A stretch of DNA of 64,000 bases, taken from the sequence record MW735835.1, one strand, 5' to 3'. The DNA comes from Pseudomonas phage pPa_SNUABM_DT01. This document shows positions 7,151-62,104 of this stretch, piece by piece (the stretch's first letter is position 1; the number at the start of each line of letters is the position of its first letter). The notes under the pieces were generated by a model. That model searched no databases and was not told the origin of the DNA. It was given only the letters and a program-made list of their open reading frames with translations. Made by a program: the position numbers and the translations under genes.

Positions 7151-8278
7151 TTATGCTGGCTCGACGTTGCGATACAAGAACGGACGGATGTTCTTGTCGA
7201 TGTACTGCTTCACCCAAGCGGCCACGTCCGACGGGATCTGATTGACCAGGTACTTGCCGCTGTCTGCTTCGAGCAGGGCACGGCGAATCCGGTTCTTGTC
7301 CGCGTCGTTCTTCTGGTTATTGTTCAGCTGGTCGAACTTGAGCAGCATCGCAATAGCCGGCATCCGAGCAATGGTGAGCGCCCAGATAGCTTGGTTGGTG
7401 AAGGCAATGTCCGGCAGACGTACCGTCTGAAGCAGGTTATCCTGCCCAAACACCGGTACGTTCGCCAGCATCGTCGTGTAGGTGTAGGTTTCCCGGGAGA
7501 ACCGCGCAGCGATCTCTTTAAGGCCTGCCTCCAGCTTGGGGTAGAGGTCAGCCGTATAGAAAGGCATGTCACTGGGTTCCCGTACGTAACCTTCCCCGCC
7601 GATCAAGCTGTGCAGGGTGTTGAGCACCGCCACGTCCAGATGACTGGTCAGCATGTTTGGGATGATCACTTGGCTGATGAAGTGCGCCGTTGGGAGTTGG
7701 AATCCGTCCGGTGCCATCGAAGCCGTGGCCATCCGCCACAGATGGTACTGACACGCCAACAACGGGATGTTAATCTCCAGCACAGCAGTAGCGCCTGCGC
7801 CCAAACCCTTGAAGGTGTGCTCACCATCCAGTTCCAGAATACCGCACCCGGATATAGGATGAGACAATACCCTCACGGGGCTCATATTCCGCCAGTTGAA
7901 CCAGATGTCGATCGGAGAAATGGAGTCATCGGCAATGGCAATGACGATCTCGTTCACGCCTTTGCCGTAGAAATGGCTGTGGTTACGGACTCGTCCGTGG
8001 TGCGCGCCGGTGCACAACCCCATCTGGCCAGAGATGCGATCGACGATGCTGGAGACACGCAGGTAGTAGTCTGGAAGGTTGCCATCGAAACTGATGTCGA
8101 CCATGGCGAGGATCTTGAGCAGCAAGTGGTCGCTCTTGATGTACCCTGGGTTCACCCGGCGGTACTCTTTATAGCGGTCCACCTGATTGGCCATCAACTC
8201 GCGCTTTACATAGTCCAGGCCCATGGTGGCGATGTTAGTCTGCCGTAGCCTGGCCTCAGTGTTGAAGAGTGTGTACAT
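7151..8278 (-). CDS. hypothetical protein
   Basis: 375-aa minus-strand ORF with an ATG start, flanked by a bidirectional terminator. It is a lone reverse-strand gene inside a plus-strand block. No recognisable catalytic motif. Confidence 0.6.
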   Translation of the reverse strand: MYTLFNTEARLRQTNIATMGLDYVKRELMANQVDRYKEYRRVNPGYIKSDHLLLKILAMVDISFDGNLPDYYLRVSSIVDRISGQMGLCTGAHHGRVRNHSHFYGKGVNEIVIAIADDSISPIDIWFNWRNMSPVRVLSHPISGCGILELDGEHTFKGLGAGATAVLEINIPLLACQYHLWRMATASMAPDGFQLPTAHFISQVIIPNMLTSHLDVAVLNTLHSLIGGEGYVREPSDMPFYTADLYPKLEAGLKEIAARFSRETYTYTTMLANVPVFGQDNLLQTVRLPDIAFTNQAIWALTIARMPAIAMLLKFDQLNNNQKNDADKNRIRRALLEADSGKYLVNQIPSDVAAWVKQYIDKNIRPFLYRNVEPA

Positions 8279-8341
8279 GGCGGGGTGTCCAGTGACGGTT
8301 AAAGTCTCAAAGGATAGCCGACGTTATAGAAGGAAATCACA

Positions 8342-8629
8342 ATGAATGCTGAAGAGCAGCGTAAAGTCATCACGCCCCTGATCCAGTCGGCGTACAACCT
8401 TACCTTCAATCCTGCGCTGCGTGGTGGGACTGAGCGTCAGGATGGTAAACAGTTGGAAGAAGGCATTACGCTCTTCCCCAACGGGATTGACGTTACCCTC
8501 AACGGGGCAACCCAGGCTATTCGCTGGGAGCTGGATGACCACAAGGTCATCAACGTCACCTACGTTCCCTTGGCCTACTTCAACCTGGCCTGGGAAGCCT
8601 TGTCCAAATACCTGAAGCACACCGAGTGA
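8342..8629 (+). CDS. hypothetical small protein
   Basis: Shine-Dalgarno element GAAGGAAA 7 nt upstream. 95 aa. Confidence 0.5.
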   Translation: MNAEEQRKVITPLIQSAYNLTFNPALRGGTERQDGKQLEEGITLFPNGIDVTLNGATQAIRWELDDHKVINVTYVPLAYFNLAWEALSKYLKHTE

Positions 8630-8836
8630 GAACTGAATCGTAAAAAATAACTCGATAGTGCATATGGTATAGGAGATCTGCTCCGGCCAGGGTTTAGCCT
8701 TGGCGAATGGGAGGGTATTTCCTTTTCTCGGACAGGCAGGGCGGTAAAACCACCAAACCCCGCCCGTAAATTTAAACGCACCGCCTGCATCATGTTGAGG
8801 CTAGGAATGTAAATTCCATTCGAAAAACTCACGGGG

Positions 8837-8846
8837 ATACATTATC
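8837..8846 (+). promoter_or_regulatory. candidate phage promoter motif ATACATTATC, followed by GTGAATATCGG
   Basis: The motif recurs upstream of at least five genes in this window, here ~80 nt upstream of the 8925 gene. Confidence 0.3.
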
Positions 8847-8924
8847 AACGTGAATATCGGAGCCAAGCTTCAAGATGTTCACTAGGCCCTAGTAACATTC
8901 TTTTCCATCCCAAGGAGTAACACC

Positions 8925-10832
8925 ATGGCTGTAAACAACGACGAAACCCTCGACACCGGCGCCGGCAGCGAGCAACCCCGTCGCAACGAACCGCGCGGCG
9001 AACCGCGTGGTGAGCGTCGTGAGACCAACATGAACGCCGGTCTGCTGGACATCAACCGCCTCCTGGGCGCCCCGATGAGCCGCCGTATCTCCGGCGAAGT
9101 TCTGGTCAATGCCGTCAAGGCCATCAAGCACTGGTTCGCTCCCGAGCGTCAAGTAGCCGGCGGCGGTCTGATCGATCTGACCAAGATCCAGGTTCTGGGT
9201 CTGGAAGCCTCCGAGCACAACGTCTCGATCTCCAGCGCCATCCTGGCCTACCCGGTCGAAGAAAACGGCACCGTCAAGGTGCTGGTGCACTCCATCGCTC
9301 TGGCTCAGAGCCTGACCGACGACGTCGGTGTGCGTACCGCCGAGATCAACCACCGCAGCTACACCCTGCCGGTGATCCCCTCGGACTACATCACCGAGAG
9401 CTACCTGGCTCTGATCGACGAAATCGTCAAGAAGAACTTCGAGCAGTCCCGCAAGAACGTCGAAATCGTTCGTGCCGGCTGGCGTGTGGTTTCGCCGAAG
9501 GTCGACTTCAGCGAGCCGGAAAACACCGAAGTGCGTCAGGTCGTGTTCTTCGCGCAGGCTGCGCTGGCCGCCATCTACGGCGACCTGTACAACGAGAACC
9601 TGTACTTCTCGCTCGACTGGCTGACCAAGGCCTCCACCCTGGAGATCAACGTCGACCTGTCCGGCCGCGAAGTGTTCACCGCTGACGGCCTGCCGCGTCG
9701 TTCCGACCTGGCCGTGCAAGTCGCCGGTATCGTCCGCAAGGGCGACCAGAACATCCCGGTTCCGCTGGCCAACCTGGGCGGCTACGTCAACATCATGTAC
9801 ACCCCGCCGGCGCAAGAAGAGCGTTGGGCCCGCAACCAGCGCCGTGATCAGCCGTACTTCACTCCGGTGTACGTGATCAACCGCATGGACACCGGCACCA
9901 ACGGCATCACCCCGGAACTGCTCCTGCTGGCCATGGCCGGCGCCTCGGTCATCTCCAAGGACCAGGCCTGGGCGCAGGGCTTCCTGCCGGGCGACGTGCA
10001 GCGCGGTGAAGTGGACTACCGTGACGCCGGTCTGCTGAACATCCTCGGCCCGGATCAGGACAAGCAGCCTGTCGTGTTCGACAGCCGCTCGAGCCTGGAC
10101 ACCAACAAGTGGGCCCAGTACTTCTTCAGCCTGGTGGACGACAACCTGGCCTGGGCAATCGAGCTGGAAGAAGGCGGCGACAACAGCTGGATCACCAGCC
10201 TGCTGTCCGACGCTGCAACCGACGACAGCCCGAACAAGGACGCCATCCGCCGTCTGTACGACTACGCGGACCGTCTGACCAACGGCAACTTCACCCGTCG
10301 TGCCAAGGAGCTGGGCGTCGAAGTCCCGCTGCAAATGTCCGGTGCCCGTTACCTGACCGGTACCTGGATCGACGAGAACGGCAAGGAGCGCGACCTGCGC
10401 GACTGGGACCTGCTGCGCTGGATGGCTTCCAACCCGAGCGACGAGGGCGAATCCGCTCTGCGCTACCAGGACGTCATCGACCGCACTGACCTGGACGTGG
10501 AAATCCGCGTTTCCGAGCAGTTCGACCAACTGACCCAAGCCCTCGGCGCGAGCAACGTCAAGTTCGCCCGCTACGTGGACCTGGCCTTCATCAACCCGGC
10601 CTTCATCGAGGCCCTCGCCATGGCCGTTGCTGATTGCAAGATCAACATCGACCAGCGCTCTGCGCACTACACCTTCGGCAACCGTCGCCTGCGTGGTAAC
10701 ACCCGCATCCGCGACTTCGTCGGTGGTGACCTGACCCACGGCATGCTCTCGAGCCGCCGCATGGGCAACGACGGTCAGCGTGGTCTGCGTTCCGTAGTCG
10801 GCAACGGCTTCGGTTTCGGCAACACCTACTGA
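8925..10832 (+). CDS. highly expressed 635-aa protein; candidate chimallin (phage-nucleus shell protein ChmA) by size and synteny
   Basis: Extreme codon bias (CTG, GGC, CGT, AAC, ATC). Canonical AAGGAGTAACACC translation-initiation region and a long structured 5' leader. It lies immediately upstream of the RNAP beta-prime N gene, as the shell-protein gene does in phiKZ-like phages, and the size is comparable. No sequence identity could be checked. Confidence 0.55.
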   Translation: MAVNNDETLDTGAGSEQPRRNEPRGEPRGERRETNMNAGLLDINRLLGAPMSRRISGEVLVNAVKAIKHWFAPERQVAGGGLIDLTKIQVLGLEASEHNVSISSAILAYPVEENGTVKVLVHSIALAQSLTDDVGVRTAEINHRSYTLPVIPSDYITESYLALIDEIVKKNFEQSRKNVEIVRAGWRVVSPKVDFSEPENTEVRQVVFFAQAALAAIYGDLYNENLYFSLDWLTKASTLEINVDLSGREVFTADGLPRRSDLAVQVAGIVRKGDQNIPVPLANLGGYVNIMYTPPAQEERWARNQRRDQPYFTPVYVINRMDTGTNGITPELLLLAMAGASVISKDQAWAQGFLPGDVQRGEVDYRDAGLLNILGPDQDKQPVVFDSRSSLDTNKWAQYFFSLVDDNLAWAIELEEGGDNSWITSLLSDAATDDSPNKDAIRRLYDYADRLTNGNFTRRAKELGVEVPLQMSGARYLTGTWIDENGKERDLRDWDLLRWMASNPSDEGESALRYQDVIDRTDLDVEIRVSEQFDQLTQALGASNVKFARYVDLAFINPAFIEALAMAVADCKINIDQRSAHYTFGNRRLRGNTRIRDFVGGDLTHGMLSSRRMGNDGQRGLRSVVGNGFGFGNTY

Positions 10833-10863
10833 TCGGCGCTGAGCGTCAGCAGTAAAGTAGCAA

Positions 10864-10905
10864 GGGGGAGCTAACGCTCCCCCGAGCTATTCCTTTTTAT
10901 TTTCA
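10864..10905 (+). terminator. rho-independent terminator
   Basis: GGGGGAGC-TAAC-GCTCCCCC followed by GAGCTATTCCTTTTTATTTTC. Confidence 0.7.
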
Positions 10906-10924
10906 CCGGAGCACGGAAAGGCCA

Positions 10925-12388
10925 ATGAAAGAACGCAATGGCGTTTACTTGCGTGTGGTGAGTTACGACACCATGTTCATGCATCAGAGTCACCCTGCGA
11001 CCCTGATGAACGACTTCAACATCGATCTTGAGGCTGATCGTCTCAAGCTGAACAACCTCATTTATGCCTCTCTGGATGGCGACTCGCTGAACAACACGGC
11101 GAGCTGTGACTGTGGGCACATCACCGGCATGGACAACTATGGCATCCGCTGCCACGAGTGTCTGAGCCTGGTCATGCCCATCACCGAGAAACCACTGGAG
11201 ACTCTCCTGTGGATCAAGGTGCCGGCTGGCATCAACAAATTCATCAACCTGACGGTGTGGCGGATTCTGTCGAAGAACCTGACGCACTCGAACTTCAACA
11301 TCCTGGAGTACTTGTGTAACCCGCGTTACAACGCACCGAGTCCGTTAGCCGCGGACAAGATGCGCAAGTTGGAGCGCCTGGAAATCCCGCGTGGCTACAA
11401 CCACTTCGTTGACAACTACGAGGCCATCCTGGTCGCGTTGTTCAAAGCGGGGCTCATCGGTCCATCCGCTTCTGCCCGTAAGCGCCGCAAGATCATGCGC
11501 TTCTTGCAGGAGAACTTTGACCGGACGTTCTCGGAGTACCTGCCGTTCCCAACTCGGCTGGGCTTCATCAAGGAGAGCAGCAACAACCGTATCACGGCCG
11601 ACCCGAAGATGGTGGCTGCGGTCAACGCCGCGCACATCCTCATCGGTATCGACAACCGCGAGACGGTCGAGAACCAACCCAAGCTGTCCCAGGCCCAGAA
11701 AGAAGGACGCGTGGTCAACGCGCTCCAGAACTTCAACGATTACTACAAGACCTTCGAGTCCGAGGTGATCTTCAAGAAGCCTGGTATCGCTCGTAAGCTG
11801 ATTTACGGCACCCGGCCGTACTTCGGGTTCCGTGCGGTGATCACCTCCCGTCAGAAGCCTCACCGGCAAGATGGCATGGAGATGCCGTGGTCGGCAAGTA
11901 CACTGCTCTTTAAGGTGCACTTGCAGAACAAGCTGATCACCCAGGGCTACATCCCTAACGAGATGCAGGCCCTGATCTACGAGAACACGCTGCGCTGGCA
12001 CCCAGAGCTGGATCGGCTGTTCAAGGAGTTGCTGGCAGAAGCTCCCAACGGGACTATTCCCACCACCTTCGGTCGTAACCCGACCCTGACGCGTGGTTCG
12101 ATCGGCTACAACCAGATCGACACCATTAAGAGTGACCCAACGGACAACACCATCTCGATCAGCCCGCTGAACTTGATCGACAAGAACGCGGACTTCGACG
12201 GTGACGCGCTCTGGGGCGAGCTGCCGCTTGACCACAAGAACGCGAAGATCATGTCCCGCCTGGACCCGGTCACTGGCGTCATGGACCTCGACAAACCGTT
12301 TACCATCTCGCGAAATACGACGCTGCCGGCGCCGTTGATTGCGACGATGACGAATTGGCTCATCGAGGGCGATAAGGTATCCACATGA
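10925..12388 (+). CDS. multisubunit RNA polymerase beta-prime subunit, N-terminal fragment
   Basis: NLIDKNADFDGDALWGE contains the universal NADFDGD Mg-binding loop. CDCGHITGMDNYGIRCHECLSLV matches the beta-prime N-terminal Zn finger (C-x-C-x12-C-x2-C). The ORF ends ~50 aa after the catalytic loop, i.e. a split beta-prime as in phiKZ-like phages. Confidence 0.9.
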   Translation: MKERNGVYLRVVSYDTMFMHQSHPATLMNDFNIDLEADRLKLNNLIYASLDGDSLNNTASCDCGHITGMDNYGIRCHECLSLVMPITEKPLETLLWIKVPAGINKFINLTVWRILSKNLTHSNFNILEYLCNPRYNAPSPLAADKMRKLERLEIPRGYNHFVDNYEAILVALFKAGLIGPSASARKRRKIMRFLQENFDRTFSEYLPFPTRLGFIKESSNNRITADPKMVAAVNAAHILIGIDNRETVENQPKLSQAQKEGRVVNALQNFNDYYKTFESEVIFKKPGIARKLIYGTRPYFGFRAVITSRQKPHRQDGMEMPWSASTLLFKVHLQNKLITQGYIPNEMQALIYENTLRWHPELDRLFKELLAEAPNGTIPTTFGRNPTLTRGSIGYNQIDTIKSDPTDNTISISPLNLIDKNADFDGDALWGELPLDHKNAKIMSRLDPVTGVMDLDKPFTISRNTTLPAPLIATMTNWLIEGDKVST

Positions 12389-13545: not shown

Positions 13546-14391
13546 ATGTCCGAACATGAAGCCCGCCAAGACCAGCGCATTGCTGAACTGGAAGCCCGCC
13601 TGGAAACCGCCGAGAAAAGCCTGACCACCGCGAACAGCGTCATCCTCGGCCTGCAACGCAGCATCGTCGATATCACCGCTGACCACGTTCACCGCGTGTT
13701 CAACGACCCGGTGCTGGTCGACAGCCTGGCTCAGCGCTTCTTCATCGCCGCTGCCAACGCGATCGCCTTCAAGGCCAAGTCCTCCAAGCAGCGCACCCCG
13801 CAGCTGGTCGTGATCGAGCAGTACATCCCGGGCGCCATCCGCGCTACCCTGCAAGAAAACGGCGACGTCTTCATCGAAGAGCAGACCGAAGGCGGCGAGT
13901 GGAAGTCCGGCGAAGCACTGTCCGAGCAGATGCGCACCCCGGAAGTGCAGACTGCCTTCGGCAACCTGCTGATCTCCTACACCGCCGAAGTCGGCAAGCC
14001 CTACTTCATCACCGAGGACGTGTACCTCGAAGAGTTCCGCGCTCAGGCTTCCCAGCAAGCTCTGGCCGTGGTCAAGGGCGTGGAAGACACCGCCGCCAAG
14101 GCGCAAGTGCGCATCACCACCCGTCCGGCCCCGCTGGGCGACGCCCCGGTGAGCGAAGACGCCAGCAACGACCTGACCATGGACGTACCGTTCGACGCGG
14201 TCTTCCACATCAAGCAAGCTGACGGCTCCGTCGTGGAAACCCTGGCCAGCGCCGTGAAAGAAGGCGACGTCGCCATCGTTTCCCGCAACGAGCAGGTCAT
14301 CCAGGAAGTGATCATCGCTGCCGTGCCGGTCGTGGCCGAAGAAGCTCCGGTTGAAGCCGAAGCGCCTGCCGCCGAAGCTGCCGCGCAGTAA
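13546..14391 (+). CDS. abundant protein with coiled-coil N-terminus and Ala/Glu/Pro-rich C-terminal tail
   Basis: CTAAGGAGTAACACCCG translation-initiation region almost identical to that of the 8925 gene. Very strong codon bias. N-terminus QRIAELEARLETAEKSL and C-terminus AEEAPVEAEAPAAEAAAQ. Followed by a strong terminator. Confidence 0.8.
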   Translation: MSEHEARQDQRIAELEARLETAEKSLTTANSVILGLQRSIVDITADHVHRVFNDPVLVDSLAQRFFIAAANAIAFKAKSSKQRTPQLVVIEQYIPGAIRATLQENGDVFIEEQTEGGEWKSGEALSEQMRTPEVQTAFGNLLISYTAEVGKPYFITEDVYLEEFRAQASQQALAVVKGVEDTAAKAQVRITTRPAPLGDAPVSEDASNDLTMDVPFDAVFHIKQADGSVVETLASAVKEGDVAIVSRNEQVIQEVIIAAVPVVAEEAPVEAEAPAAEAAAQ

Positions 14392-17998: not shown

Positions 17999-18008
17999 AT
18001 ACATTATA
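17999..18008 (+). promoter_or_regulatory. candidate promoter motif ATACATTATATC
   Basis: Same motif family as at 8837. Lies 37 nt upstream of the 18045 start. Confidence 0.3.
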
Positions 18009-22919: not shown

Positions 22920-22963
22920 TAGTTGGCAAGCCAATGCTCACCTGTAGTGTAAGGGAGTCACCG

Positions 22964-25189
22964 ATGACAAGTAACCAGTCTGTCCAGGAGCAACTGGCTC
23001 AGTACTATGCTCAGTCCGCCCGTAATCCGGTGGAACTGCATCCTGAGTTGATGTCGCTCTATGGGCTCAACCCGTTTATCCGGCACATCTCCGCATCCCG
23101 TGCGGCTATGTTCACCGGCAACCTGGCACAAATGGTGGTAATCAAGGAGCCCACCAGGAAGCACATCATGACCCTGATGGAGCGTCCGTTTGCCGATACG
23201 ACGTTCTCGATTGAATTCGAGGACAACGTGCAGATCCTTAAAATCATCCCGCGCTTCGGCCACACCGCCGGTGCCAACCGTATCCGGCATTCGCCGCAGA
23301 CGGCCATCATTTACGAGAACCAGCGCACCAACGAGATCGGGGTGACGATGCTGACGGACTACCACGTCACGCACCAGCACTTCGGCACCGAGTTCAAGCG
23401 CAATCGTGACGTGATGGACCTGATGCGCGAGAAGGCGTACTTCAAGGCTGGTACCAAGCTGGCCCACAGTCCGCTGATTGACCAGTATGGCAACTACATG
23501 TACGGCCGCGAGACGAACGTGCTCATGGCGTCTGACGTGGCAGGGACTGAGGACGGTGTGAAGGCCCGTCGGGGATACCTGGAGAAGTTGGCCCCCACAG
23601 GATTTGAGACTCGTGTCTTCGAATTCGGGCGTGAGTTCTTCCCGACCAACCAATCCACAGTCCCCGGCATCTATAAGGTCATGCCTGACCTGGGCGAGAA
23701 GGTAAGCAGCACTGGCTTGCTGGTAGCGCTGCGCCGGTATGACCCGATCAGTGGCGTGGCCAACATGACCACCGAGGCGCTGCAACAGCCGGACTACATC
23801 TTCGACCGGAAGCGGTTCGTCCAACACATCGATGCTGAAGTGGTGGACATCAAGGTCGAACGCAACACCTCGATCAACATCCCGCCGTTGCCGGTGGGCA
23901 TGGAAGATCAGCTGCTCAAGTACTACAACGCCGACACCGAGTTCTACAAGAAGATCGTGGACTTCTGGTGGGAAAAGCGTAAAGAAGCGCGCAAGCGTGG
24001 GTACGAAGAGCTGCCGATGGAGCCGGAGTTCAACCATCTGGTGTTCGAAGCCATCGGCCGGGTTGGTCCTGACCATCTGCGGTCGGACCATGGGTTCAAC
24101 CGGAAGGTCGATGAAGCCGTCTCGGGCGGTAAAGTCGACAAGGTCTACCGCGGCGTGAAGCTGGACGCATGGCGCGTGGAGATCACCTTCAAGTACCTGT
24201 CCATCCCGAACAAGGGCTATAAGATCACCGACATCAACGGCAACAAGTCCGTCGTGGTCGAGGTGGTCGATGACGAAGACATGCCGGTCGACGAGAACGG
24301 AATCGTCGCTGACATCGTCGTAGACCCGAACTCCCGTTGGAACCGGGTAACACCAGCATCCCCGATCGAAATGGTGATCTCGGGTGCCGGGCGTGACCTG
24401 GGCAAGCGCCTCCAGCATGCCTTCGGGTTCCCCATGAACGATCAGTTGAAGGAGGATGAAGTAAACGACGTCGTCTATTCTCCCGAGAACCGTGATCTCG
24501 TGGAGTATTGGTTCGACGAGCTGATGGAGTTCTACAAGGTAGTCGCTCCGTACCAGTACGACGACCTCTCGGACCCCGAGTACCACCGCTTCAACCCGGA
24601 GTACAAGCACACGCAAGTGGCCGCAGTCATGCTGGATCACCTGCTGGGCATCGACCTCACCATGCCGACCGATAACCCGGTCCACATGCCGGATGTCATC
24701 CGCGCCATTCAGGAGCGCTGGCCTCCGTTCATCACCCCTGTCCGCTTCCGCGGCCGGGACGGCAAGATGAAGGTGTCCCGTGAGCCGATGCTGATTGCTC
24801 CGTCCTACTACATCAACCTGGAGAAGACCGCAGAAGACTCGTGGATGGCTGCATCGTCCGCGAAGTGCAACGTGTTCGGTACCACTGCGCGTCTGTCCAA
24901 CAACGACAAGTACGACTCTCCCGGTCGTCAGTCGTCCATTCGTGTCGGTGAGTCCGAGATTCGCTCGGAGTCCGCTGTCTGTGGTGGTGAAGCCACTGCC
25001 GATCAGAAGGACGCCTCCAACAACCCGATTGCGCACAAGTTCGTGCTCCGTCGGCTGTTGACCCACCCGACCCCGACCAACATCGAGGAGGTTCTCGATC
25101 GGAAGGTGGTTCCGGTAGGCGGGCATAGACCGTTGGCCTACATGCGCAACATGTTCGAATGCTCGGGCAAACAACTCACCAACGAATAA
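22964..25189 (+). CDS. multisubunit RNA polymerase beta subunit, C-terminal fragment
   Basis: [23 protein letters not shown] matches E. coli beta [43 protein letters not shown] matches [20 protein letters not shown]. A degenerate GDK-RHGNKG region is present ([16 protein letters not shown]). Start at ATG 22964 (AAGGGAG, 6-nt spacer). Confidence 0.9.
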   Translation: [741 protein letters not shown]

Positions 25190-25201: not shown

Positions 25202-27304
25202 ATGCGTCGAATCAAAGCACGTGAGTTCATGAACCGCGACGTAATCGCGGAGTGGCCGCTGCCCGATGAGAAGTTGATTATCGAGTTCGACGACGGGGTT
25301 CTTGAGACCACCACTCGCCGTACCACGACGAGCTGGTTTTGCTGGGAGCTGCACCGGCAGTTCCCCCGCACCCCGCTGAACATCAACCACCACATCGGCA
25401 ATGGGTTCCCCAGCGCTGACATGATCCCCAAGACGCTGTCCAACATCGTCCGGGATCTGCACTACACGTACTTCACGCCAGGCAGCGAACTGGCAAACCA
25501 CGATCTGTGCTACGACCGGGAGGATGTGTGGCGCGTGGTGAAGGACGTCGGTAACGAGATCTACAACGTCCTGTCGGTCAATCTGGAAGAGTGGCATGTC
25601 CACATCAACGCCTTCCACCTGCTCGAGCTGTACGACTACCCGCCGTTGGTGGCGATTCGTGCGACGCTCAAGGATAACCAGCTCTCCATCTCCAACGCGA
25701 TGGACCGGACCTCTGAAGTCCTGATGAAGGACCCAGCGATCCTGCACAACCCCATCGTACGGGGGCTGCGTTCCAAGCAGATCAAGATGGGTCAGTTCTT
25801 GCAGATCATCCTCTGCTTGGGCTACCGGACCGACCTGGACCAGGTAATCTTCCGCAAGGCCATCACGGTCGGCTTCTTCGAGGGCCTGACCAAGATGCAC
25901 GACATCATGATCGAGTCGTGCTCGGCCAAGAAAGCGCTCATGTTCACCAAGAAGCCGCTGCGGATCGTCGAGTACTTCAACCGGAAGATGCAGCTGTCCA
26001 CCACCGTGGTCGACAAGCTCATCTGGAACGACTGTGGTTCGGACGTGTACGCCGAGATCCCGGTCGACACCCACCTCTGGTCCCACCTCGACGGCAAGTT
26101 CTACCTCGATGAGTCCACCCGCAAGTTGACTGCTATCCATGCGGACAACAAAGAGCAGCAGAAAGCGCTCAAGGGTAAGACCATCAAGATGCGCTCGGCC
26201 ATGTTCTGCCGTTACCGTGGTCGTGGTGAAGTTTGCCACGTCTGCTTCGGCGAGCTGGCTTGGTCCATCCCGCGGGAAACCAGCCTGGGTCACGTCTGTG
26301 CTACCGAACTCTGCCGGGAAGGTTCCCAGCGGACGCTGTCTGTGAAACACTTGGACGGCTCGTCGGTAGTGGAGGAAATCGTCATTGCGGAGGAACACCT
26401 GCCGTACATTGACGTCTGTGCCTCGGACCCAGCAGTGAACGACAACGGGGATGTGGAGGTGATGTCTGCCGCCACCGAAGAACTCCTGGGTGAAGCTGTC
26501 CCGGAAACCGCCCGTGAATCCTCGCTGCTGAAGTTCAACCCACGGCTGAAGAAGATGAAGCCGGTCATGATCCTGCCTGCCGCCCCGGACAAGAACACCG
26601 AGAACGCAGCGGGCCTGGCCGCCATCAACAGCGACACCGTCATCGAGCGCTTGAACATCCACCGGTTCACTTCGTTCCGCGAAGTTCAGATCCGTGTGAC
26701 CAACCTGCGCGAAGAAACCACCGATGCGTTCATCCCGGTCAGCCAGGGTGCACGGTTGGGTTCGCTGTCCCGCGTCATGCTGCACTACATCAAGGACCAC
26801 GGCTACACCGTTGACGAAGATGGCAACTATTGCATCGACCTCAGCGAGTGGGACTTCGGTGCTCCGGCGTTCTCCCTGCCGCGCCGCCATGCCAGTACGC
26901 TGGACTTCATGGCTGCGGTAGAGGCATTCATCCGCTCCCCGGCGAAGAAGTCGGAACGCAACGGCTTCAACGGCCGCATGCTGACCAGCTACGACGACCC
27001 GGTAGCAGCATTGCTGGACTTCAGTGATCTGGTGAACTCGCAACTGCGGGTATCCATCAGCCACCTCGAAGTGATCCTGCTGTCGCTGTCCCGTCCGGCG
27101 GATGACCCTGACGACTACCGTCTGCCGGACTTTGACCGGCCGATGAAGTTCGAAGAGCACCGGACCCTGATGCAGTATCGTTCGGCTGGCCAGCAACTGG
27201 CCTACGAGCGGCAGCCTGACATGATCGAAGATCCGGACAGCTACCTGATCACCAAGCGTCCGGCGGGTCTCCTGGACCCGTTCGTGTTCCCGGAAGTTAT
27301 CTGA
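25202..27304 (+). CDS. multisubunit RNA polymerase beta-prime subunit, C-terminal fragment (paralog 1)
   Basis: MRSAMFCRYRGRGEVCHVCFGELAW...SLGHVCATELCREGSQRTLSVKHLDGSS aligns to the beta-prime region [23 protein letters not shown]...[26 protein letters not shown] (Zn-binding Cys cluster plus trigger-loop region). Tightly coupled to the beta-C gene (TAAGCGGAGTAAGCAATG). Confidence 0.8.
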   Translation: MRRIKAREFMNRDVIAEWPLPDEKLIIEFDDGVLETTTRRTTTSWFCWELHRQFPRTPLNINHHIGNGFPSADMIPKTLSNIVRDLHYTYFTPGSELANHDLCYDREDVWRVVKDVGNEIYNVLSVNLEEWHVHINAFHLLELYDYPPLVAIRATLKDNQLSISNAMDRTSEVLMKDPAILHNPIVRGLRSKQIKMGQFLQIILCLGYRTDLDQVIFRKAITVGFFEGLTKMHDIMIESCSAKKALMFTKKPLRIVEYFNRKMQLSTTVVDKLIWNDCGSDVYAEIPVDTHLWSHLDGKFYLDESTRKLTAIHADNKEQQKALKGKTIKMRSAMFCRYRGRGEVCHVCFGELAWSIPRETSLGHVCATELCREGSQRTLSVKHLDGSSVVEEIVIAEEHLPYIDVCASDPAVNDNGDVEVMSAATEELLGEAVPETARESSLLKFNPRLKKMKPVMILPAAPDKNTENAAGLAAINSDTVIERLNIHRFTSFREVQIRVTNLREETTDAFIPVSQGARLGSLSRVMLHYIKDHGYTVDEDGNYCIDLSEWDFGAPAFSLPRRHASTLDFMAAVEAFIRSPAKKSERNGFNGRMLTSYDDPVAALLDFSDLVNSQLRVSISHLEVILLSLSRPADDPDDYRLPDFDRPMKFEEHRTLMQYRSAGQQLAYERQPDMIEDPDSYLITKRPAGLLDPFVFPEVI

Positions 27305-30462: not shown

Positions 30463-30652
30463 TTCGGATGGTTTAATTCCGGAGTAAACTTTCTTCAGAA
30501 TTTCATGATACCATCGAAAGCGTTCTTTGGTTTTTTCACGGTGCAGCCATTGATTTTCTTCCCGTTGATTTACGGTGCGGGTATTATGCTTTATTGAACC
30601 GTTTTATAGCCCTACATTAAACTACTGAGAATCCAATCACCTAGGAGCTATC
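30463..30652 (+). promoter_or_regulatory. AT-rich ~190-bp intergenic region (candidate promoter region)
   Basis: Markedly lower GC than the flanks. Direct repeat TTGATTT...TTGATTT, and a CCTACATTAAAC variant of the ATACATTATC motif 33 nt before the HD gene start. Confidence 0.3.
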
Positions 30653-34514: not shown

Positions 34515-35891
34515 TTAGGTAAAGGCTTCCAGAATGTTCAGTTTGGCCGTCTTCAGTTCTTTGGCGTGTGCCGAGGCCATCATGATGTCCATGAACTTGG
34601 ACGCCACAGAGGTGTTCTCAGCGCCGATGGCGTGCGGGATGGCCGCCAGGGCTTCACCTACGCACTTAGCGCAGAAGTCGGTAGCACCGGTCTTGCAGAA
34701 GATCGGCGAACGGGTAAGGACGGTCTTACCTTCGAGGCTGATGGCACGTTGCTCATCGAGCAGTACCGGACCTTTCGGGGTGATTTCCCAAAGGCCAGCG
34801 TAGTACGAACCTTGACCTTTCTCGATGGTCCGTTCCAGCCCCAGCGTAGCGCCGCAGTCGTCTTCGGAGATCGCGACGTTCTGGAACACCCGCATGAAGA
34901 ACTTCACCGCTTCCCCGCCGAGTGCAGTCAGTGCACCCCGGTAGAAGGAACCGGCACGAGTGGAGTTGAACATCGCCACCAGCTTGTCGGTGTCCCAGCC
35001 CTCGGTCAGCGAGTTGACCACGAGTTCGGCGCTACCGCCCTCGTTGAAGCCCGCTTCAGGACCGTGGATGAGGAACATACGCTTACGTGCCGTGCCCCAG
35101 GTCTTGTTCGACAGGAGGAAGCCTTCAGACGGGTCGTCTTTCAGCCAAGCCTTGTCCATGTCGATCAGTTCGTTCTGGATCTTCGAGACCACAACCGGGT
35201 CGTGCAGACGCTCTTGGTTCTCTTCGAGCAGCTTGGCACGACGACCGTAGACCGCCGGGTCAGTCATCAGCGACTTGGGCGTCAGGGTCGGCACGAACAA
35301 CTGGGTGAAACCAGCCAGTGCGCCCATGCAACGACCAAAGCGCATGTACATCTTCACCGGGATCTGGTCAGGCCGGGGTTCGACACCACTGACCTCAGGA
35401 TCGTCGCACAGCTTGGAGGCGATGATGCGTTCGATCTTGCTGATCTTCACCGGACCGACCTGGTAAGGGATACGGTCTTCGAAGGGTTCGACCAGCGCGA
35501 TGTAGTTGAACAGCAGATCGCCGTAGGTGGAGTCCACTTCCTCATGGAGGTTGGCGATCATGTCCGGGGTGACCTTGAGGTCATCGGCCGGGTAGAACAG
35601 CGGGGTCATCGGGACGGTATCCTCGATGGGTACCCATGCTTCTGGGTCTTCCACCGGGATGTGGCGCACCTGAGGGACACCATGATGATCACCGAGGATC
35701 ACCGTGCCTTCCGGCTCATGTTTCTCACCGGGCAGGTAGACTTCGGTGACATCGGCCTTGTAGCGGATGTCGTAAGCCTGAGGGACGATGCCGTTCTCAG
35801 GACGGACGACTGAGAAGGCACTGATGACCCAGTCCTTACGGCGGTAGCACCCTGCTCGCAGGGCGGCTACGTAGAGGTCTTGCTTCTTCAC
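34515..35891 (-). CDS. multisubunit RNA polymerase beta-prime subunit, C-terminal fragment (paralog 2)
   Basis: [20 protein letters not shown] matches the beta-prime region [71 protein letters not shown] matches [25 protein letters not shown]...[26 protein letters not shown]. The N-terminus ([13 protein letters not shown]) resembles SPANGEPIIVPSQDV just after the catalytic loop, so this is the natural partner of the 10925 N-fragment. Confidence 0.85.
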   Translation of the reverse strand: [458 protein letters not shown]

Positions 35892-43435: not shown

Positions 43436-43512
43436 GGCTCCATAGTTCAGTTGGTTAGAATGCTAGCCTGTCACGCTAGAGGTCAGGGGTTCGAGTCCCC
43501 TTGGAGTCGCCA
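43436..43512 (+). tRNA. tRNA-Asp (anticodon GTC)
   Basis: Acceptor GGCTCCA/TGGAGTC (one G-U pair), D-arm GTTC-AGTTGGTTA-GAAT, anticodon arm CTAGC-CTGTCAC-GCTAG, T-arm AGGGG-TTCGAGT-CCCCT, discriminator G and CCA. Confidence 0.9.
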
Positions 43513-46710: not shown

Positions 46711-46833
46711 GAAATAACCAGGTCTGCTAGATGTATGATAGCAGGCCTGGTCTTGCAATAAATCGTATGAGGGTGTAAACTCTCTGCCACACAAACAAGA
46801 AACCACCACTAACCAGACGCCAAGGAGTGTCTA

Positions 46834-47163
46834 ATGAACGAAGCGCTTGGAAAGCGTGATTTGAAACGGATTCTTTCCGTTCGTTTGGATCAACTGGTGC
46901 ACGTCCCGAAGTTCTTTGACGATACTGGTTTTTCCACCCTGGGCCATTGCCTCCACGTGGAGGTAGATCGTGAAGACGGGTTGATCAAGTACGACCTGTA
47001 CGGTAACGTGGTAGCCCAAGCTCGTATCACCACTGGCGGCGTCGGTGACATTGAAGTCGTCGACAAGAAAGTGTGGGACGAGGATGAGTTGGGATTGGAT
47101 ACCCTGATCGAGTGCACGTGCGATTGCATGGGTATCTCTCCCAGGGAGATGTACAACATCTGA
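46834..47163 (+). CDS. hypothetical protein
   Basis: CAAGGAG Shine-Dalgarno element. 109 aa with a C-terminal CTCDC motif. Confidence 0.6.
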   Translation: MNEALGKRDLKRILSVRLDQLVHVPKFFDDTGFSTLGHCLHVEVDREDGLIKYDLYGNVVAQARITTGGVGDIEVVDKKVWDEDELGLDTLIECTCDCMGISPREMYNI

Positions 47164-47170
47164 TCCGAAA

Positions 47171-47200
47171 AGAGAGGGGCTTCGGCCCCTCTTCTTTTGC
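47171..47200 (+). terminator. rho-independent terminator
   Basis: AGAGGGGC-TTCG-GCCCCTCT followed by TCTTTTGCCG. Confidence 0.8.
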
Positions 47201-47227
47201 CGTTTGACCATAACCAGGAGAAAGCCA

Positions 47228-47644
47228 ATGCGGAACCTCACCGCCAAGCTGTTGGTCTCAGCCCTCAAGGTACTGCATGCCGAAGAGACGTTCTTAGACA
47301 CGTGCGATTGGGAAACCTTACCCGATTACCGGATCGTCCGCATCACCCATGATGGGGAATGGAACAGCATCATCACCTTCGGCAGTAATAAGAACAAACT
47401 GACTGGCACAGTCAGAGTCAACTACAATGTACTCCGTCGTCATCTGATGGATCTCAGTTACAGCATCATCGAGACGGCTGGTGCTTCTTTCCAGACCTTC
47501 TCCAAAGCGGGTTATCCCGGGTTCTTCTTCAAGATCATGGAAAAGAAGAACCGCAAAGGAGAAACCACATTGCAGCGCCTAGAACGTGAAGCCGCAGAAG
47601 TTCAGGCCAAGCACGAACGCATGATCGCTGACAAGAAGAAATAA
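47228..47644 (+). CDS. hypothetical protein
   Basis: AGGAGA Shine-Dalgarno element 6 nt upstream of ATG 47228. 138 aa with a basic coiled-coil C-terminus. Confidence 0.6.
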   Translation: MRNLTAKLLVSALKVLHAEETFLDTCDWETLPDYRIVRITHDGEWNSIITFGSNKNKLTGTVRVNYNVLRRHLMDLSYSIIETAGASFQTFSKAGYPGFFFKIMEKKNRKGETTLQRLEREAAEVQAKHERMIADKKK

Positions 47645-47747
47645 ACGGATAGGGGACTTCGGTCCCCTCCCCCGTCAAGCCGACGAACGGTAATTGACAC
47701 GTAGCTGGGTTATGCTACAATTCAACTAAGGCCACATGGAGGGCAAC

Positions 47748-48014
47748 ATGAATGCAATAAATAACAAGAAAGGTACGAGAATGAAGAAAGTTGTAAACTG
47801 GTTCACCAATCGCTTGGACAAATGGTTCAAGTTCAAAACTGTCAAGCTGTTCAATTTCGAGGCTGAAGACATGAAGGTAGTAGGCTACGGGCTGATCACT
47901 CTGGCATTCGCAATCGTCATCAACGCGGGTGTCAACGCTTACGCGATACATGAAGGTAAGACTATCCATCAAACCTTTGAAGTCAACATCATCAAGAAGG
48001 AGGAGGCTAAATAA
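47748..48014 (+). CDS. small single-pass membrane protein
   Basis: GGAGGG Shine-Dalgarno element. 88 aa with a hydrophobic segment VVGYGLITLAFAIVINAGVNAYAI. A/T-richer codon usage than the neighbours. Confidence 0.5.
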   Translation: MNAINNKKGTRMKKVVNWFTNRLDKWFKFKTVKLFNFEAEDMKVVGYGLITLAFAIVINAGVNAYAIHEGKTIHQTFEVNIIKKEEAK

Positions 48015-48031
48015 GAGCGGCACGAAAATAA

Positions 48032-48070
48032 ACCCAGGCCAAGACGGCCCGGGCTTTATTTTTTGTTTTG
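48032..48070 (+). terminator. rho-independent terminator
   Basis: CCCAGGCC-AAGAC-GGCCCGGG imperfect stem followed by CTTTATTTTTTGTTTTG. Confidence 0.6.
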
Positions 48071-48117
48071 AAGGAATCCTATGCGTTAATTTTTCTTTTG
48101 TCCGCTAGGGATTCATT

Positions 48118-48723
48118 ATGAGATCTTTACTTATGGCGGGAGCCATGGTCAAGTCCGACATCAGAGGCAGTGTACTGTTCCAGACCAGTGGAACATTCAA
48201 ATGGAAATGTCCTGAAGGAGTCACCAAGGTATCGATAGCCCTTGTAGGTAGCGGTGGCTCTGGTTATTGGGAGAACCGTCAGATTGGTGCTGGCGGTAAC
48301 GTGCGGTTCGTCAACGACGTTCCCGTTGTTCCAGGTACAGAATACAACATCACCATCCCCAGTCAACGTGCAGCGAAGAACCTCAACGCCGATAACAGCA
48401 CCAGCGCTCTTGGCTATACGGCTAACTCTACGTTGTCCGCCACTGTACTGGGTGGTAACGGTCAACAACCACTCCAATCTCTTGGTAGCTCGATGCGAGC
48501 AGGCGGCGCGGTAGGTTATGTTGCCAGTGGTACCACTGGTCAAGGTATCAATCTCCTGACCTTCACTGCAACCGCCCCTTCCAGCGGTGGACGTTACGAT
48601 GGCCAAACCGCCGGCGGTGGTGGTGGCTACAATGGATCGAGTGCAGGTCTTGGTGCCGTGGGTGCCGTCCGCATTCTTTGGGGTAAAGGTAGAGCCTTCC
48701 CTTCCACCGATATTGTGGACTGA
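48118..48723 (+). CDS. glycine-rich protein (possible fiber/structural glycine-rich domain)
   Basis: VSIALVGSGGSGY, GAGGN and a GGGGGYNGS tract. 201 aa. AGGGA Shine-Dalgarno element. Confidence 0.6.
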   Translation: MRSLLMAGAMVKSDIRGSVLFQTSGTFKWKCPEGVTKVSIALVGSGGSGYWENRQIGAGGNVRFVNDVPVVPGTEYNITIPSQRAAKNLNADNSTSALGYTANSTLSATVLGGNGQQPLQSLGSSMRAGGAVGYVASGTTGQGINLLTFTATAPSSGGRYDGQTAGGGGGYNGSSAGLGAVGAVRILWGKGRAFPSTDIVD

Positions 48724-48724
48724 C

Positions 48725-48758
48725 AGCATAGAGCCCGGCATCTGCCGGGCTCTATGCT
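48725..48758. terminator. bidirectional terminator (CATAGAG...CTCTATGC family)
   Basis: A 16-bp stem AGCATAGAGCCCGGCA-TCT-GCCGGGCTCTATGCT between convergent genes. Confidence 0.8.
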
Positions 48759-48759
48759 C

Positions 48760-60764: not shown

Positions 60765-60874
60765 TGCCGCGTCGTTGTCAAAAGGCACCTATTGTGTGCA
60801 GGGATGTGGAACTGTCCTAGGTTCAGCCTGCATCCCGTTCCTTCTGTTTGCAAACACAACGGAGTTTTACACTC

Positions 60875-62104
60875 ATGCGTAGCTCGATTCTCTCTCAAGC
60901 TCTGAACGTCTCCATGGAGAACGATGACATCGTCGTCGAGAACCAGGAGATCAACCCGGTGACCGAAGAAACCACCGTTCAGGTGGACGAAGTCCTGGAA
61001 GAAGTGCGTGACGCCGGCGCCGTTGCCGACGAGCACGAAGAAGTGGTCGAAGAGCTGGACCAGGCTGCTGACAGCCTCGAGAGCCTGATCACCTCCCTGG
61101 AAAGCGCCATCGCCGACGGCGGCATGAGCCCGCAAGCCGCTGACGTCCACAGCCGCGCCCTGGCCATCGCCACCCGTCGCCTGCCGATCAACGCCAGCGA
61201 CTACACCGTTTCCACCGAATCCTTCGGCGGTACCGGCGACAAGCTGCAAGCCTCCATGGAAGCCCTCGAAGGCGCCAAGGAACTGCTGTCCAAGATCTGG
61301 AACGGCATCAAAACCGCCGTGCAGAACGCCTGGAAAGCAGTCGTCAACTTCGTCAGCACCATCGGCAAGTCGAGCGAAGCCCTGCGCCGCGCTGGCAAGC
61401 TGCTGATCGCCCAGGCCAACGGTGCCAAGGGCAACGCTGCTGGCAAGAAAGTCGACGGCACTGCCGTTGCCAAGCTGCTGCACAAGAACGGCGAAATGCC
61501 GTCCGGTTCGAGCGTCGGCGGCCTGCTGGCCACCATCGTTTCCAACGGCGGTGCCGTGGTTACCTCCGCCAAGGTTGCTCAGACCGAGCTGACCAAGCTG
61601 TCCGGCGCCATCGCCGCTGGCCGCACCACCACCGAAGAGCAGCAGGCTGGCTACGACGCCATCATCAACGCTCTGCCGAAGGGTGAGCTGCCTGGTGGCC
61701 GCGTGATCGAAGTCCAGGACTCCGGCATGCCGAAGCTGGTCCAGAAGGTCAACCTGAAGTCCGACAGCGTCGAGCTGGACGTTCCGTCCGTGAACGACAT
61801 CAAGTCGATCGGCCAAGGCATCATCAAGATCGCCGACTTCATCGCCGACTACGACAAGAAGTACTTCAAGGGCCTGGAGAAGTCCATCAACGACTTCGTC
61901 TCCAAGCAGGATCAGCTGATCAAGCGCATGGAGCTGGAAAAGGCCGAGACCAAGAAAGTCCGCGGCGAACTGGCCGGCTTCAAGAAGATCTCCTCGATCG
62001 CTCGCGCCGTCGGCCCGGACTACCTGTCCTACGCCGCCAACGCTGCCAAGGCCTCCTTCAACTTCGGTAAGAAGAGCCTGGCCCAGTACGCTGCTGCCAA
62101 GTGA
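60875..62104 (+). CDS. hypothetical Ala-rich protein, 409 aa (probable structural/scaffold-like)
   Basis: ACGGAG Shine-Dalgarno element 10 nt upstream of ATG 60875. Very strong codon bias. Confidence 0.8.
   Translation: MRSSILSQALNVSMENDDIVVENQEINPVTEETTVQVDEVLEEVRDAGAVADEHEEVVEELDQAADSLESLITSLESAIADGGMSPQAADVHSRALAIATRRLPINASDYTVSTESFGGTGDKLQASMEALEGAKELLSKIWNGIKTAVQNAWKAVVNFVSTIGKSSEALRRAGKLLIAQANGAKGNAAGKKVDGTAVAKLLHKNGEMPSGSSVGGLLATIVSNGGAVVTSAKVAQTELTKLSGAIAAGRTTTEEQQAGYDAIINALPKGELPGGRVIEVQDSGMPKLVQKVNLKSDSVELDVPSVNDIKSIGQGIIKIADFIADYDKKYFKGLEKSINDFVSKQDQLIKRMELEKAETKKVRGELAGFKKISSIARAVGPDYLSYAANAAKASFNFGKKSLAQYAAAK

Follow-up and report, generated by a model that had tools for sequence, protein, structure and literature searches.

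The shell protein gene of phage DT01

We analyzed a stretch of 64,000 nucleotides (nt), referred to here as the window, of the 265,520-bp genome of Pseudomonas phage pPa_SNUABM_DT01 (DT01; sequence record MW735835.1). Between positions 8925 and 12388 lie two adjacent genes on the plus strand, both exactly where an initial annotation of the window had placed them. The first codes for chimallin (ChmA), the major protein of the shell of the phage nucleus, and the second for the N-terminal part of the beta-prime subunit of the non-virion RNA polymerase (nvRNAP). Both identifications, gp147 as chimallin and gp148 as a subunit of the gp55 type, are as secure as homology allows. The core of the locus is composed of the following features.

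8912-8917, plus strand: Shine-Dalgarno sequence AAGGAG, 7 nt before the ATG at 8925
8925..10832, plus strand: chmA, chimallin, major phage-nucleus shell protein, 635 amino acids (aa), PA10_00147 (gp147) of DT01
10858..10903, plus strand: hairpin resembling an intrinsic terminator, TAGCAA-GGGGGAGC-taac-GCTCCCCC-GAGCTA followed by TTCCTTTTTATTTT, between chmA and the polymerase gene
10925..12388, plus strand: nvRNAP beta-prime N subunit (gp148 of DT01), 487 aa, ortholog of phiKZ gp55

The product of chmA is identical over its full length (100%) to NCBI protein PA10_00147, which carries the GenBank label "hypothetical protein." It matches the Pfam family PF25677 (Chimallin_Phikzvirus) with 115.9 bits against a gathering cut-off of 27, residues 88 to 599 being aligned with profile positions 82 to 598 of 627, and the precomputed Pfam annotation of PA10_00147 is likewise PF25677. 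PHROG 4795, annotated as "nuclear shell protein," is matched at 2e-63 over residues 30 to 632. Sequence matches in the PDB are PhuN of phiPA3 (8fne, 7.8e-23) and the chimallin of 201phi2-1 (7sqq and 8igg, 4.2e-18).

ChmA protomers of 201phi2-1, Goslar, phiPA3, and phiKZ have a core folded into two domains; their flexible tails, one at each terminus, dock into neighboring molecules. An AlphaFold2 model of the DT01 protein, built on 31 homologs, has a predicted template modeling score (pTM) of 0.75 and a mean predicted local distance difference test score (pLDDT) of 74.9, with a confident core at residues 54 to 585 and disorder in both tails. When this model was compared with the PDB by Foldseek, ranks 1 to 9 were all chimallin or PhuN chains (E values of 3e-31 to 1e-26; target-normalized template modeling [TM] scores of 0.77 to 0.84), and nothing other than chimallin/PhuN was found with an E value better than 0.06 (rank 10). 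The chimallin identity proposed in the initial annotation, which was to fall if no similarity were detectable or if a capsid protein emerged, is therefore borne out by profile and by structure; neither of those outcomes was found.

The tails themselves contain sequence that is conserved within the clade. Two motifs are kept across the 31 homologs, DxNRLLG near the N terminus (D42, N44, R45, L46, L47, and G48) and FG..R.RGN...GNGFG at the C terminus (F584, G585, R587, R588, G591, N627, G628, and G630), and the C terminus can be aligned with PhuN up to residue 631. The first approximately 35 residues form a low-complexity stretch rich in R, E, and P that varies within the clade. Position 8925 can be taken as the true start of chmA because both the CCAAGGAG-spacer-ATG arrangement and the MAV.. 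N terminus are kept in every relative, in agreement with the consensus initiation region (AAGGAG 7 nt before the ATG) noted earlier. A 616-aa ORF (open reading frame) on the reverse strand at 8889-10739 was rejected as a gene; it is a shadow of the chimallin frame with its high GC content at third codon positions (GC3; GC1 of the shadow ORF, 0.84).

Among deposited phages, the best tblastn matches were found in the Xanthomonas phages RTH11, vB_XciM_LucasX, and Xoo-sp14, with identities of 24 to 25% for chimallin and 36 to 37.5% for beta-prime N. The divergent lineage that had been expected is thus apparent, identity to any deposited chimallin being no higher than 25%. A megablast search of positions 1 to 25000 of the window against the phage collection (without MW735835) gave no match, a result that is uninformative on novelty. 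Metagenomes contributed 44 chimallin homologs with 45 to 91% identity, all of 628 to 680 aa and many of them on contigs of 240 to 277 kb. The chimallins of four IMG/VR contigs of 276 to 277 kb (L004, L005, L017, and L020) are 82 to 83% identical to that of the window, and proteins from compost metagenomes are 82 to 91% identical.

Subunits of the non-virion RNA polymerase

The 487-aa product of the second gene matches PHROG 2987 at 2.3e-133. Its best solved match is PDB chain 7ogp_A (PHIKZ055 of the phiKZ nvRNAP; 1.3e-72), covering aa 5 to 480, or 476 of the 487 residues, and the next-best PDB chains, described as "DNA-directed RNA polymerase beta-prime subunit," follow at approximately 1e-13. 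By homology, the protein is a subunit of the non-virion enzyme and not of the virion enzyme. The two beta-prime features reported in the initial annotation are both present and both align with PHIKZ055: the Zn-finger string CDCGHITGMDNYGIRCHECLSLV at aa 61 to 83 (nt 11105-11173; cysteines C61, C63, C77, and C80) and the catalytic loop NADFDGD at aa 421 to 427 (nt 12185-12205). The distance given from the loop to the end of the protein had to be amended, since the stop lies 60 aa after it and not approximately 50. The beta-prime subunit is truly split because its C-terminal part is encoded separately in the window, where further polymerase genes are found as follows.

22934-25189, plus strand: nvRNAP beta-C (gp160), PHROG 3295, 1.5e-176
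25202-27304, plus strand: nvRNAP beta-prime-C (gp161), PHROG 3015, 2.4e-156
34515-35891, reverse strand: further subunit of a multisubunit RNAP, among the four virion RNAP genes of the authors of DT01

Those authors assigned gp148 as nv-beta-prime-N, gp160 as nv-beta-C, gp161 as nv-beta-prime-C, and gp168 as an RNAP subunit (PMC8541153), and gene numbers counted from gp147 in the window agree with these assignments.

The beta-prime N gene of the window is uninterrupted. In the metagenomic contig L023 (5918-8876), an HNH_3/NUMOD1 endonuclease ORF (7821-8282) stands in place of the beta-prime N gene; in six others (L008, L010, L011, L012, L015, and L019), the tblastn match ends at aa 389 to 429, just before NADFDGD; and in LucasX, the match is found in two pieces. 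This suggests that mobile introns or inteins are present at the catalytic site of beta-prime N in several relatives.

Gene order and family membership

The order of a shell protein gene followed by the beta-prime N gene, cited in the initial annotation as typical of phiKZ-like phages, is retained from the DT01 clade to Phikzvirus. The pair is kept in all 21 relatives examined and also in PA7, RTH11, and 201phi2-1; in the IMG/VR relatives (17/17), beta-prime N follows chimallin after a spacer of 78 to 103 nt. Independent contigs share the neighborhood of the chimallin gene, and the window, four deeper relatives (L021 to L024), PA7, RTH11, and 201phi2-1 have in common a block of DNA polymerase, gp52-like gene (reverse strand), chimallin, and nvRNAP beta-prime N. 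In L021 to L024, the full order is DNA polymerase, a small ORF, a reverse-strand gene of approximately 370 aa, a gap of approximately 300 nt, chimallin, beta-prime N, and a 207-aa gene. To the left of the chimallin leader, the window contains two genes.

7151..8278, minus strand: divergent 375-aa gene, phiKZ gp52-like (phrog_3938, 5.2e-67), left neighbor of the chimallin locus
8342..8629, plus strand: 95-aa ORF, phrog_34139 (1.1e-35, unknown function), between the gp52-like gene and the chimallin leader

A reverse-strand gene of approximately 360 to 375 aa, likened by its position, is found at the same place in L021 to L024, PA7, RTH11, and 201phi2-1, and the record of 201phi2-1 itself describes the gene as "similar to phiKZ gp52." The 95-aa ORF is an insertion peculiar to DT01 that is missing from 17 of 17 IMG/VR relatives. 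The motif AAGTCTCAAAGGAT, which in the relatives stands directly 5' of the leader, occurs here at 8302, upstream of this ORF.

Further features of the Chimalliviridae in the window are a split family-B DNA polymerase, subunits of both the nvRNAP and the virion RNAP (vRNAP), internal head proteins, and many PHROGs of the phiKZ type. The family is recognized by chimallin together with a core-gene set that includes two multisubunit RNAPs with split beta and beta-prime subunits, and DT01 conforms to this description. The GC content of the window is 56.6%, compared to 39.5% at the phiKZ-type locus, so that the initial annotation was right to call DT01 far richer in GC than phiKZ; GC-rich chimalliviruses have already been deposited (58.7% at the RTH11 locus).

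The leader of chmA

Upstream of chmA lies a gap of 295 nt (8630-8924), close to the structured leader of approximately 290 nt described initially. It folds better than most of its shuffled versions (z = -2.83; 2 of 200 shuffles equally good) and includes a hairpin with real covariation. Nucleotide conservation of the leader is high among relatives whose chimallins are only 45 to 85% identical. The following features can be distinguished.

8640..8675, plus strand: distal promoter-like unit, GTAAAAAATAACT-N10-TATGG (A-rich block plus TAACT at 8640-8652, N10, and TATGG at 8661-8675)
8668..8731, plus strand: conserved structured RNA element of approximately 64 nt, lying between the two promoter-like units
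8672-8684, plus strand: helix P1 of the element, GGAG/CUCC
8686-8704, plus strand: helix P2 of the element, a covarying hairpin
8709-8727, plus strand: helix P3 of the element, GGGAGGG/UCCUUUU
8735..8765, plus strand: hairpin of high GC content, GGCAGGGCGG...CCGCCC, inserted in the middle, variable portion of the leader
8812..8856, plus strand: proximal promoter, of the type common in DT01, AATTCCATTCGAA ... TACATTAT-N5-TGAATA
8877..8896, plus strand: palindrome GTTCACTAGGCCCTAGTAAC, nearly invariant, 15 nt upstream of the ribosome-binding site

The proximal unit is most likely an early promoter recognized by the virion RNAP, a class assigned from its motif. It can be aligned with TATATTAC-N5-TGAATCT 5' of chimallin in PA7 and 201phi2-1, and we take TATATTAC to be the core of the phiKZ early promoter. 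The consensus of the unit also precedes the genes at 18045, 22934 (nvRNAP beta-C), 30653, and 39323. In the form TTC-N4-5-GAA ... TACATTAT/A-N5-TGA(A/G)AAT, it was observed on the plus strand at 18000, 22911, 30620-30640, and 39330, a set that includes the nvRNAP beta-C/beta-prime-C operon. The shared consensus is probably the early-promoter motif of DT01, related to the TATATTAC motif of PA7 and 201phi2-1. Jumbo phages that encode RNAPs each have their own AT-rich early-promoter motif of approximately 10 nt, centered near -10 (PMC7598289). A scan for sigma-70 promoters between 8000 and 13200 returned no sites, as would be anticipated where a phage relies on polymerases of its own.

The distal unit is nearly invariant in 14 leaders, and a matching unit is found 5' of chimallin in PA7 and 201phi2-1. 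It resembles the middle promoter of phiKZ, an A-repeat and TACT approximately 22 nt upstream of the transcription start site (TSS), the TSS in DT01 being placed by this resemblance. In phiKZ, PHIKZ054 has a primary TSS with the early motif and a secondary TSS with the middle motif (PMC8244752).

The palindrome at 8877-8896 is unique in the window and conserved in 15 of 15 leaders. RNAalifold predicts that it forms a hairpin, with variation too small for a check by covariation, and it could be either an RNA hairpin in a short 5' untranslated region (UTR) or a DNA operator. The hairpin at 8735-8765 is largest in DT01 and is shorter or absent in the relatives, where the alignment has gaps.

A covarying RNA element in the leader

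A covariance model of the element at 8668-8731 has a single match in the window (72.7 bits). In the alignment, 91.9% of paired cells are filled by pairs, compared to 82.0 +/- 1.2% in shuffled alignments (0 of 500 as good) and 52 to 70% in slid controls. All 14 true matches to the element in IMG/VR lie upstream of chimallin, and it occurs nowhere else there. The other 6 of the 20 matches to GGGAGGGTATTTCCTTT have no chimallin nearby and were discarded as chance 17-mer matches, their sequence being unrelated on inspection. Rfam 15 gave no relevant match between 8200 and 11000 at E values up to 1, and in a scan of the whole window only the two tRNAs described below reached the gathering score. 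With the covariance model, no copy was detected in 201phi2-1, PA7, or RTH11. By eye, the order TACT-N10-13-TATG, two hairpins, and an early promoter can be followed 5' of chimallin in all three phages; because the model misses them, the likeness of leaders across the family is one of architecture only. A structured leader may nonetheless be a family-wide trait of shell gene control.

It is a serious possibility, if short of even odds, that the conservation of the leader reflects signals at the level of DNA, namely, two promoters and operators for a phage regulator, and that RNA folding is incidental, with no functional RNA. The majority of the conserved blocks are AT-rich and correspond to promoter motifs that are used at other sites of DT01 or by phages of the phiKZ type; P1, P3, and the palindrome are nearly invariant, as DNA bound by a protein would be; and the z-score of the whole leader is modest. 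The behavior of P2 argues against this explanation. Its stem of 7 to 9 bp is formed in 15 of 15 sequences despite sequence change, each of its 7 pairs being changed on both sides among the sequences, with 2 to 5 canonical pair types at the central positions. P2 also includes 17 G-U or U-G pairs, which would be A-C mismatches on the opposite strand, and the reverse complement folds more weakly in 12 of 13 sequences. This pattern indicates that selection acts on the plus-strand RNA and not on duplex DNA.

Beyond P2, two alternative pairings are open to the GGAG, CUCC, and GGGAGGG..UCCUUUU blocks, which hardly vary. Each of the nested foldings gains one compensatory variant (L034 for P1 and L014 for the enclosing helix), too few to choose between them. 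A long-range fold from RNAalifold, in which GCUCC (8682-8686) pairs with GGAGU of the Shine-Dalgarno region and both sides are invariant, is speculative. We tentatively propose, as possible rather than probable, that the DT01-like clade has in this element, perhaps together with the palindrome at 8877-8896, a cis-acting RNA of its own, not described before, that tunes production of the shell protein. Three routes can be considered. It is possible that stem-loops close to the 5' end stabilize the longer, middle-phase chmA transcript. The leader could switch between two mutually exclusive foldings of the GGAG, CUCC, and GGGAGGG blocks, one of which would also mask the ribosome-binding site. Release as a short RNA derived from the 5' UTR, as reported for phiKZ, is also possible by analogy. 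The element may be a new side result of this analysis, and, if functional, it would provide a handle on the dosing and timing of shell protein synthesis.

Terminator, codon usage, and a model of expression

The hairpin at 10858-10903 folds better than any of 200 shuffled sequences (z = -3.66) and is followed by a run of T. Across 12 relatives, its stem is invariant, its loop is variable, and its outer stem covaries; equivalent terminators are found 3' of chimallin in PA7, RTH11, and 201phi2-1. Many such intrinsic terminators have been reported in phiKZ (PMC10914365). The 92-nt spacer between chmA and beta-prime N contains no promoter motif. Since a terminator precedes it and its spacer lacks such a motif, the polymerase gene would be expressed by read-through, with both the termination and the read-through deduced from sequence. 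The chimallin-gp55 spacer of PA7 (L046, 4558-4951) is 394 nt long, noncoding, and rich in hairpins, with a strong terminator right before the gp55 ribosome-binding site, and may contain an RNA that has not been annotated.

In the initial annotation, chmA was credited with the strongest codon bias in the window. This could not be upheld: by the effective number of codons (Nc), chmA (27.7) ranks second among 57 genes, after 13546-14391 (26.6) and before 60848-62104 (27.8), although its GC3 of 0.84 is the highest. The median Nc of long genes in the window is 38.8. Two tRNA genes lie within a 1.5-kb stretch that is poor in ORFs, corresponding to the two tRNAs, Asn and Asp, that the authors of DT01 reported (PMC8541153).

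43351-43426, plus strand: tRNA-Asn(GTT)
43436-43512, plus strand: tRNA-Asp(GTC)

The cognate codons of these tRNAs account for 97% (AAC) and 92% (GAC) of the respective choices in the chimallin gene, compared to 86% and 67% in other genes.

A model of expression can be proposed from these elements. The proximal, early-type promoter and the distal, middle-type promoter would together drive chmA, matching phiKZ gp54 with its early primary and middle secondary TSS, and the longer transcript from the distal promoter would begin with the P1-P2-P3 element. The consensus ribosome-binding site and near-optimal codons would lead to high chimallin output. The terminator after chmA would pass only part of transcription into the polymerase gene, and this partial read-through would set a high ratio of shell protein to polymerase. 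The beta-prime N subunit would then, with beta-C, beta-prime-C, and the other subunits, transcribe middle and late genes inside the shell compartment.

Two other regions of the window deserve mention. The gene with the strongest codon bias (13546-14391, plus strand; GC3, 0.81) encodes a 281-aa protein with an Ala/Glu/Pro-rich C-terminal tail. It had no significant Pfam match (best, CT47 at a subthreshold E value of 0.0085), and neither PHROGs nor a tblastn search of 50,697 phage records gave a match. The gene lies three genes downstream of that for the polymerase subunit, and its product is presumably an orphan protein made in very large amounts. The region 46810-48759 (approximately 1.95 kb) has a lower GC content (0.51 to 0.54), and its ORFs are short and weakly periodic on both strands; it yielded no confident gene call, and no known RNA family was detected in it.

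Discussion

Our results indicate, with a probability that we estimate at about 0.93, that DT01 is a jumbo phage of the Chimalliviridae group, with a chimallin gene and an nvRNAP beta-prime N gene in the expression layout proposed above. ChmA forms a lattice one molecule thick that encloses replicating phage DNA and keeps out ribosomes and host nucleases, so that transcription is set apart from translation. From this established biology of the family, gp147 very probably builds a nucleus-like shell.

Several points weigh against these conclusions. Nucleus formation by DT01 follows from homology and not from experiment, and identity to the experimentally studied chimallins is only 16 to 25%. The tails that would make lattice contacts (residues 1 to 53 and 586 to 635) are modeled at a pLDDT below 50, which is expected because such segments become ordered only in the lattice. 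Motif similarity is the basis for the promoter classes, for the start sites, and for read-through at the terminator, and P1 and P3 vary too little for their pairing to be checked by covariation. The tubulin PhuZ was sought in the window, 64 kb of the 265,520-bp genome, by comparing approximately 45 ORFs with PHROGs and by scanning all frames for the tubulin motif. No PHROG family annotated as tubulin or PhuZ was found among these ORFs, and GGG[TS]G[STAG]G is absent from every frame. This absence does not bear on membership in the family because PhuZ, a dispensable accessory, is encoded by only 66.2% of the phages that have a chimallin gene.

The low identity and the lack of PhuZ in the window would also fit a diverged chimallin homolog that forms no closed nucleus and serves as a partial scaffold or in another structural role, in a lineage without a true compartment. 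We regard this as improbable. The fold of chimallin is matched over its full length at TM scores of 0.77 to 0.84, both terminal tails are present with motifs conserved throughout the clade, and the length is held within 628 to 680 aa across 45 homologs. Moreover, other signatures of the family, two multisubunit RNAPs and a conserved gene block, accompany the gene, and both its codon bias and its expression signals point to a product of very high abundance. According to one published account, every chimallin-encoding phage studied experimentally to date forms a nucleus (PMC11724907). That the abundant 635-aa protein is a capsid or other structural component of the virion can be dismissed, for although codon bias is equally strong in the internal head protein gene at 60848-62104, the protein matches no capsid or structural family in Pfam or PHROGs and its sole significant structural matches are to chimallin, profile and fold searches having already refuted this assignment. 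A shell-forming chimallin thus remains the interpretation that we prefer.

The identification of chimallin in DT01 is correct but already known. The phage was published in 2021 as a 265.5-kb jumbo phage in a paper that does not mention a shell, a nucleus, or tubulin (PMC8541153). The finding is not new because a supplementary list of Prichard et al. (2023) includes DT01 (MW735835) among the chimallin-encoding phages that define the core genome of the Chimalliviridae; a 2025 paper places DT01 as a neighbor of a chimallivirus. NCBI taxonomy lists the phage under unclassified Caudoviricetes. The main value of this analysis therefore lies in curation, since the bona fide chimallin of a cultivable Pseudomonas aeruginosa jumbo phage is still "hypothetical" in GenBank and the phage itself is unclassified at NCBI.

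The DT01-like clade is worth attention as a GC-rich group, far from the model phages, that is common in compost and other metagenomes. JPTI55, a close relative of DT01 with a genome of 275,808 bp, is reported to mobilize a satellite genomic island in Pseudomonas fluorescens SBW25, as the first jumbo phage helper of such an island. This raises the question of how satellite DNA passes the chimallin shell; with this clade, a helper that forms a nucleus may have been found for a satellite for the first time.

Comparison with known systems

The locus of DT01 can be compared with that of phages of the phiKZ type (PA7; PDB 7OGP). Both have the gene pair in the same order and on the same strand, a divergent gp52-like gene upstream, a leader of approximately 300 nt (311 nt in PA7) in which the proximal motif is of the early type and the distal one of the middle type, as for PHIKZ054, and a terminator after chimallin; beta-prime N aligns with PHIKZ055 from end to end. 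They differ in chimallin sequence (approximately 24% identity) and in GC content (about 40% in the phiKZ type). In PA7, moreover, the spacer between the chimallin and polymerase genes is 394 nt instead of 92 nt, the proximal core is TATATTAC rather than TACATTAT, and P1-P2-P3 is not detected by the covariance model.

The chimallins of 201phi2-1 (gp105; 7SQQ, 7SQR, 7SQS, and 8IGG) and Goslar (7SQT to 7SQV) resemble gp147 in fold (TM scores of 0.77 to 0.84), in length, and in their disordered tails, and the localized reconstructions superimpose with a root mean square deviation of 3.6 to 4.5 A over approximately 550 columns. Their sequence identity to gp147 is 16 to 20%, however, and the DT01 protein differs from them in starting with its R/E/P-rich stretch of approximately 35 residues. 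In 201phi2-1, gp106 lies between the chimallin and the polymerase subunit genes, and extra small genes are found on both sides of chimallin.

RTH11, LucasX, and Xoo-sp14 are the closest deposited relatives, with the two genes adjacent and a similarly high GC content, but they share no similarity with DT01 at the nucleotide level, and the leader element was not detected in RTH11. The uncultured DT01-like jumbo phages from compost and other metagenomes in IMG/VR share with DT01 a chimallin of 45 to 91% identity, the gene order, the start site, the terminator, and the leader element, whereas they lack the 95-aa ORF at 8342-8629, and in several of them beta-prime N contains an insertion or an HNH endonuclease.

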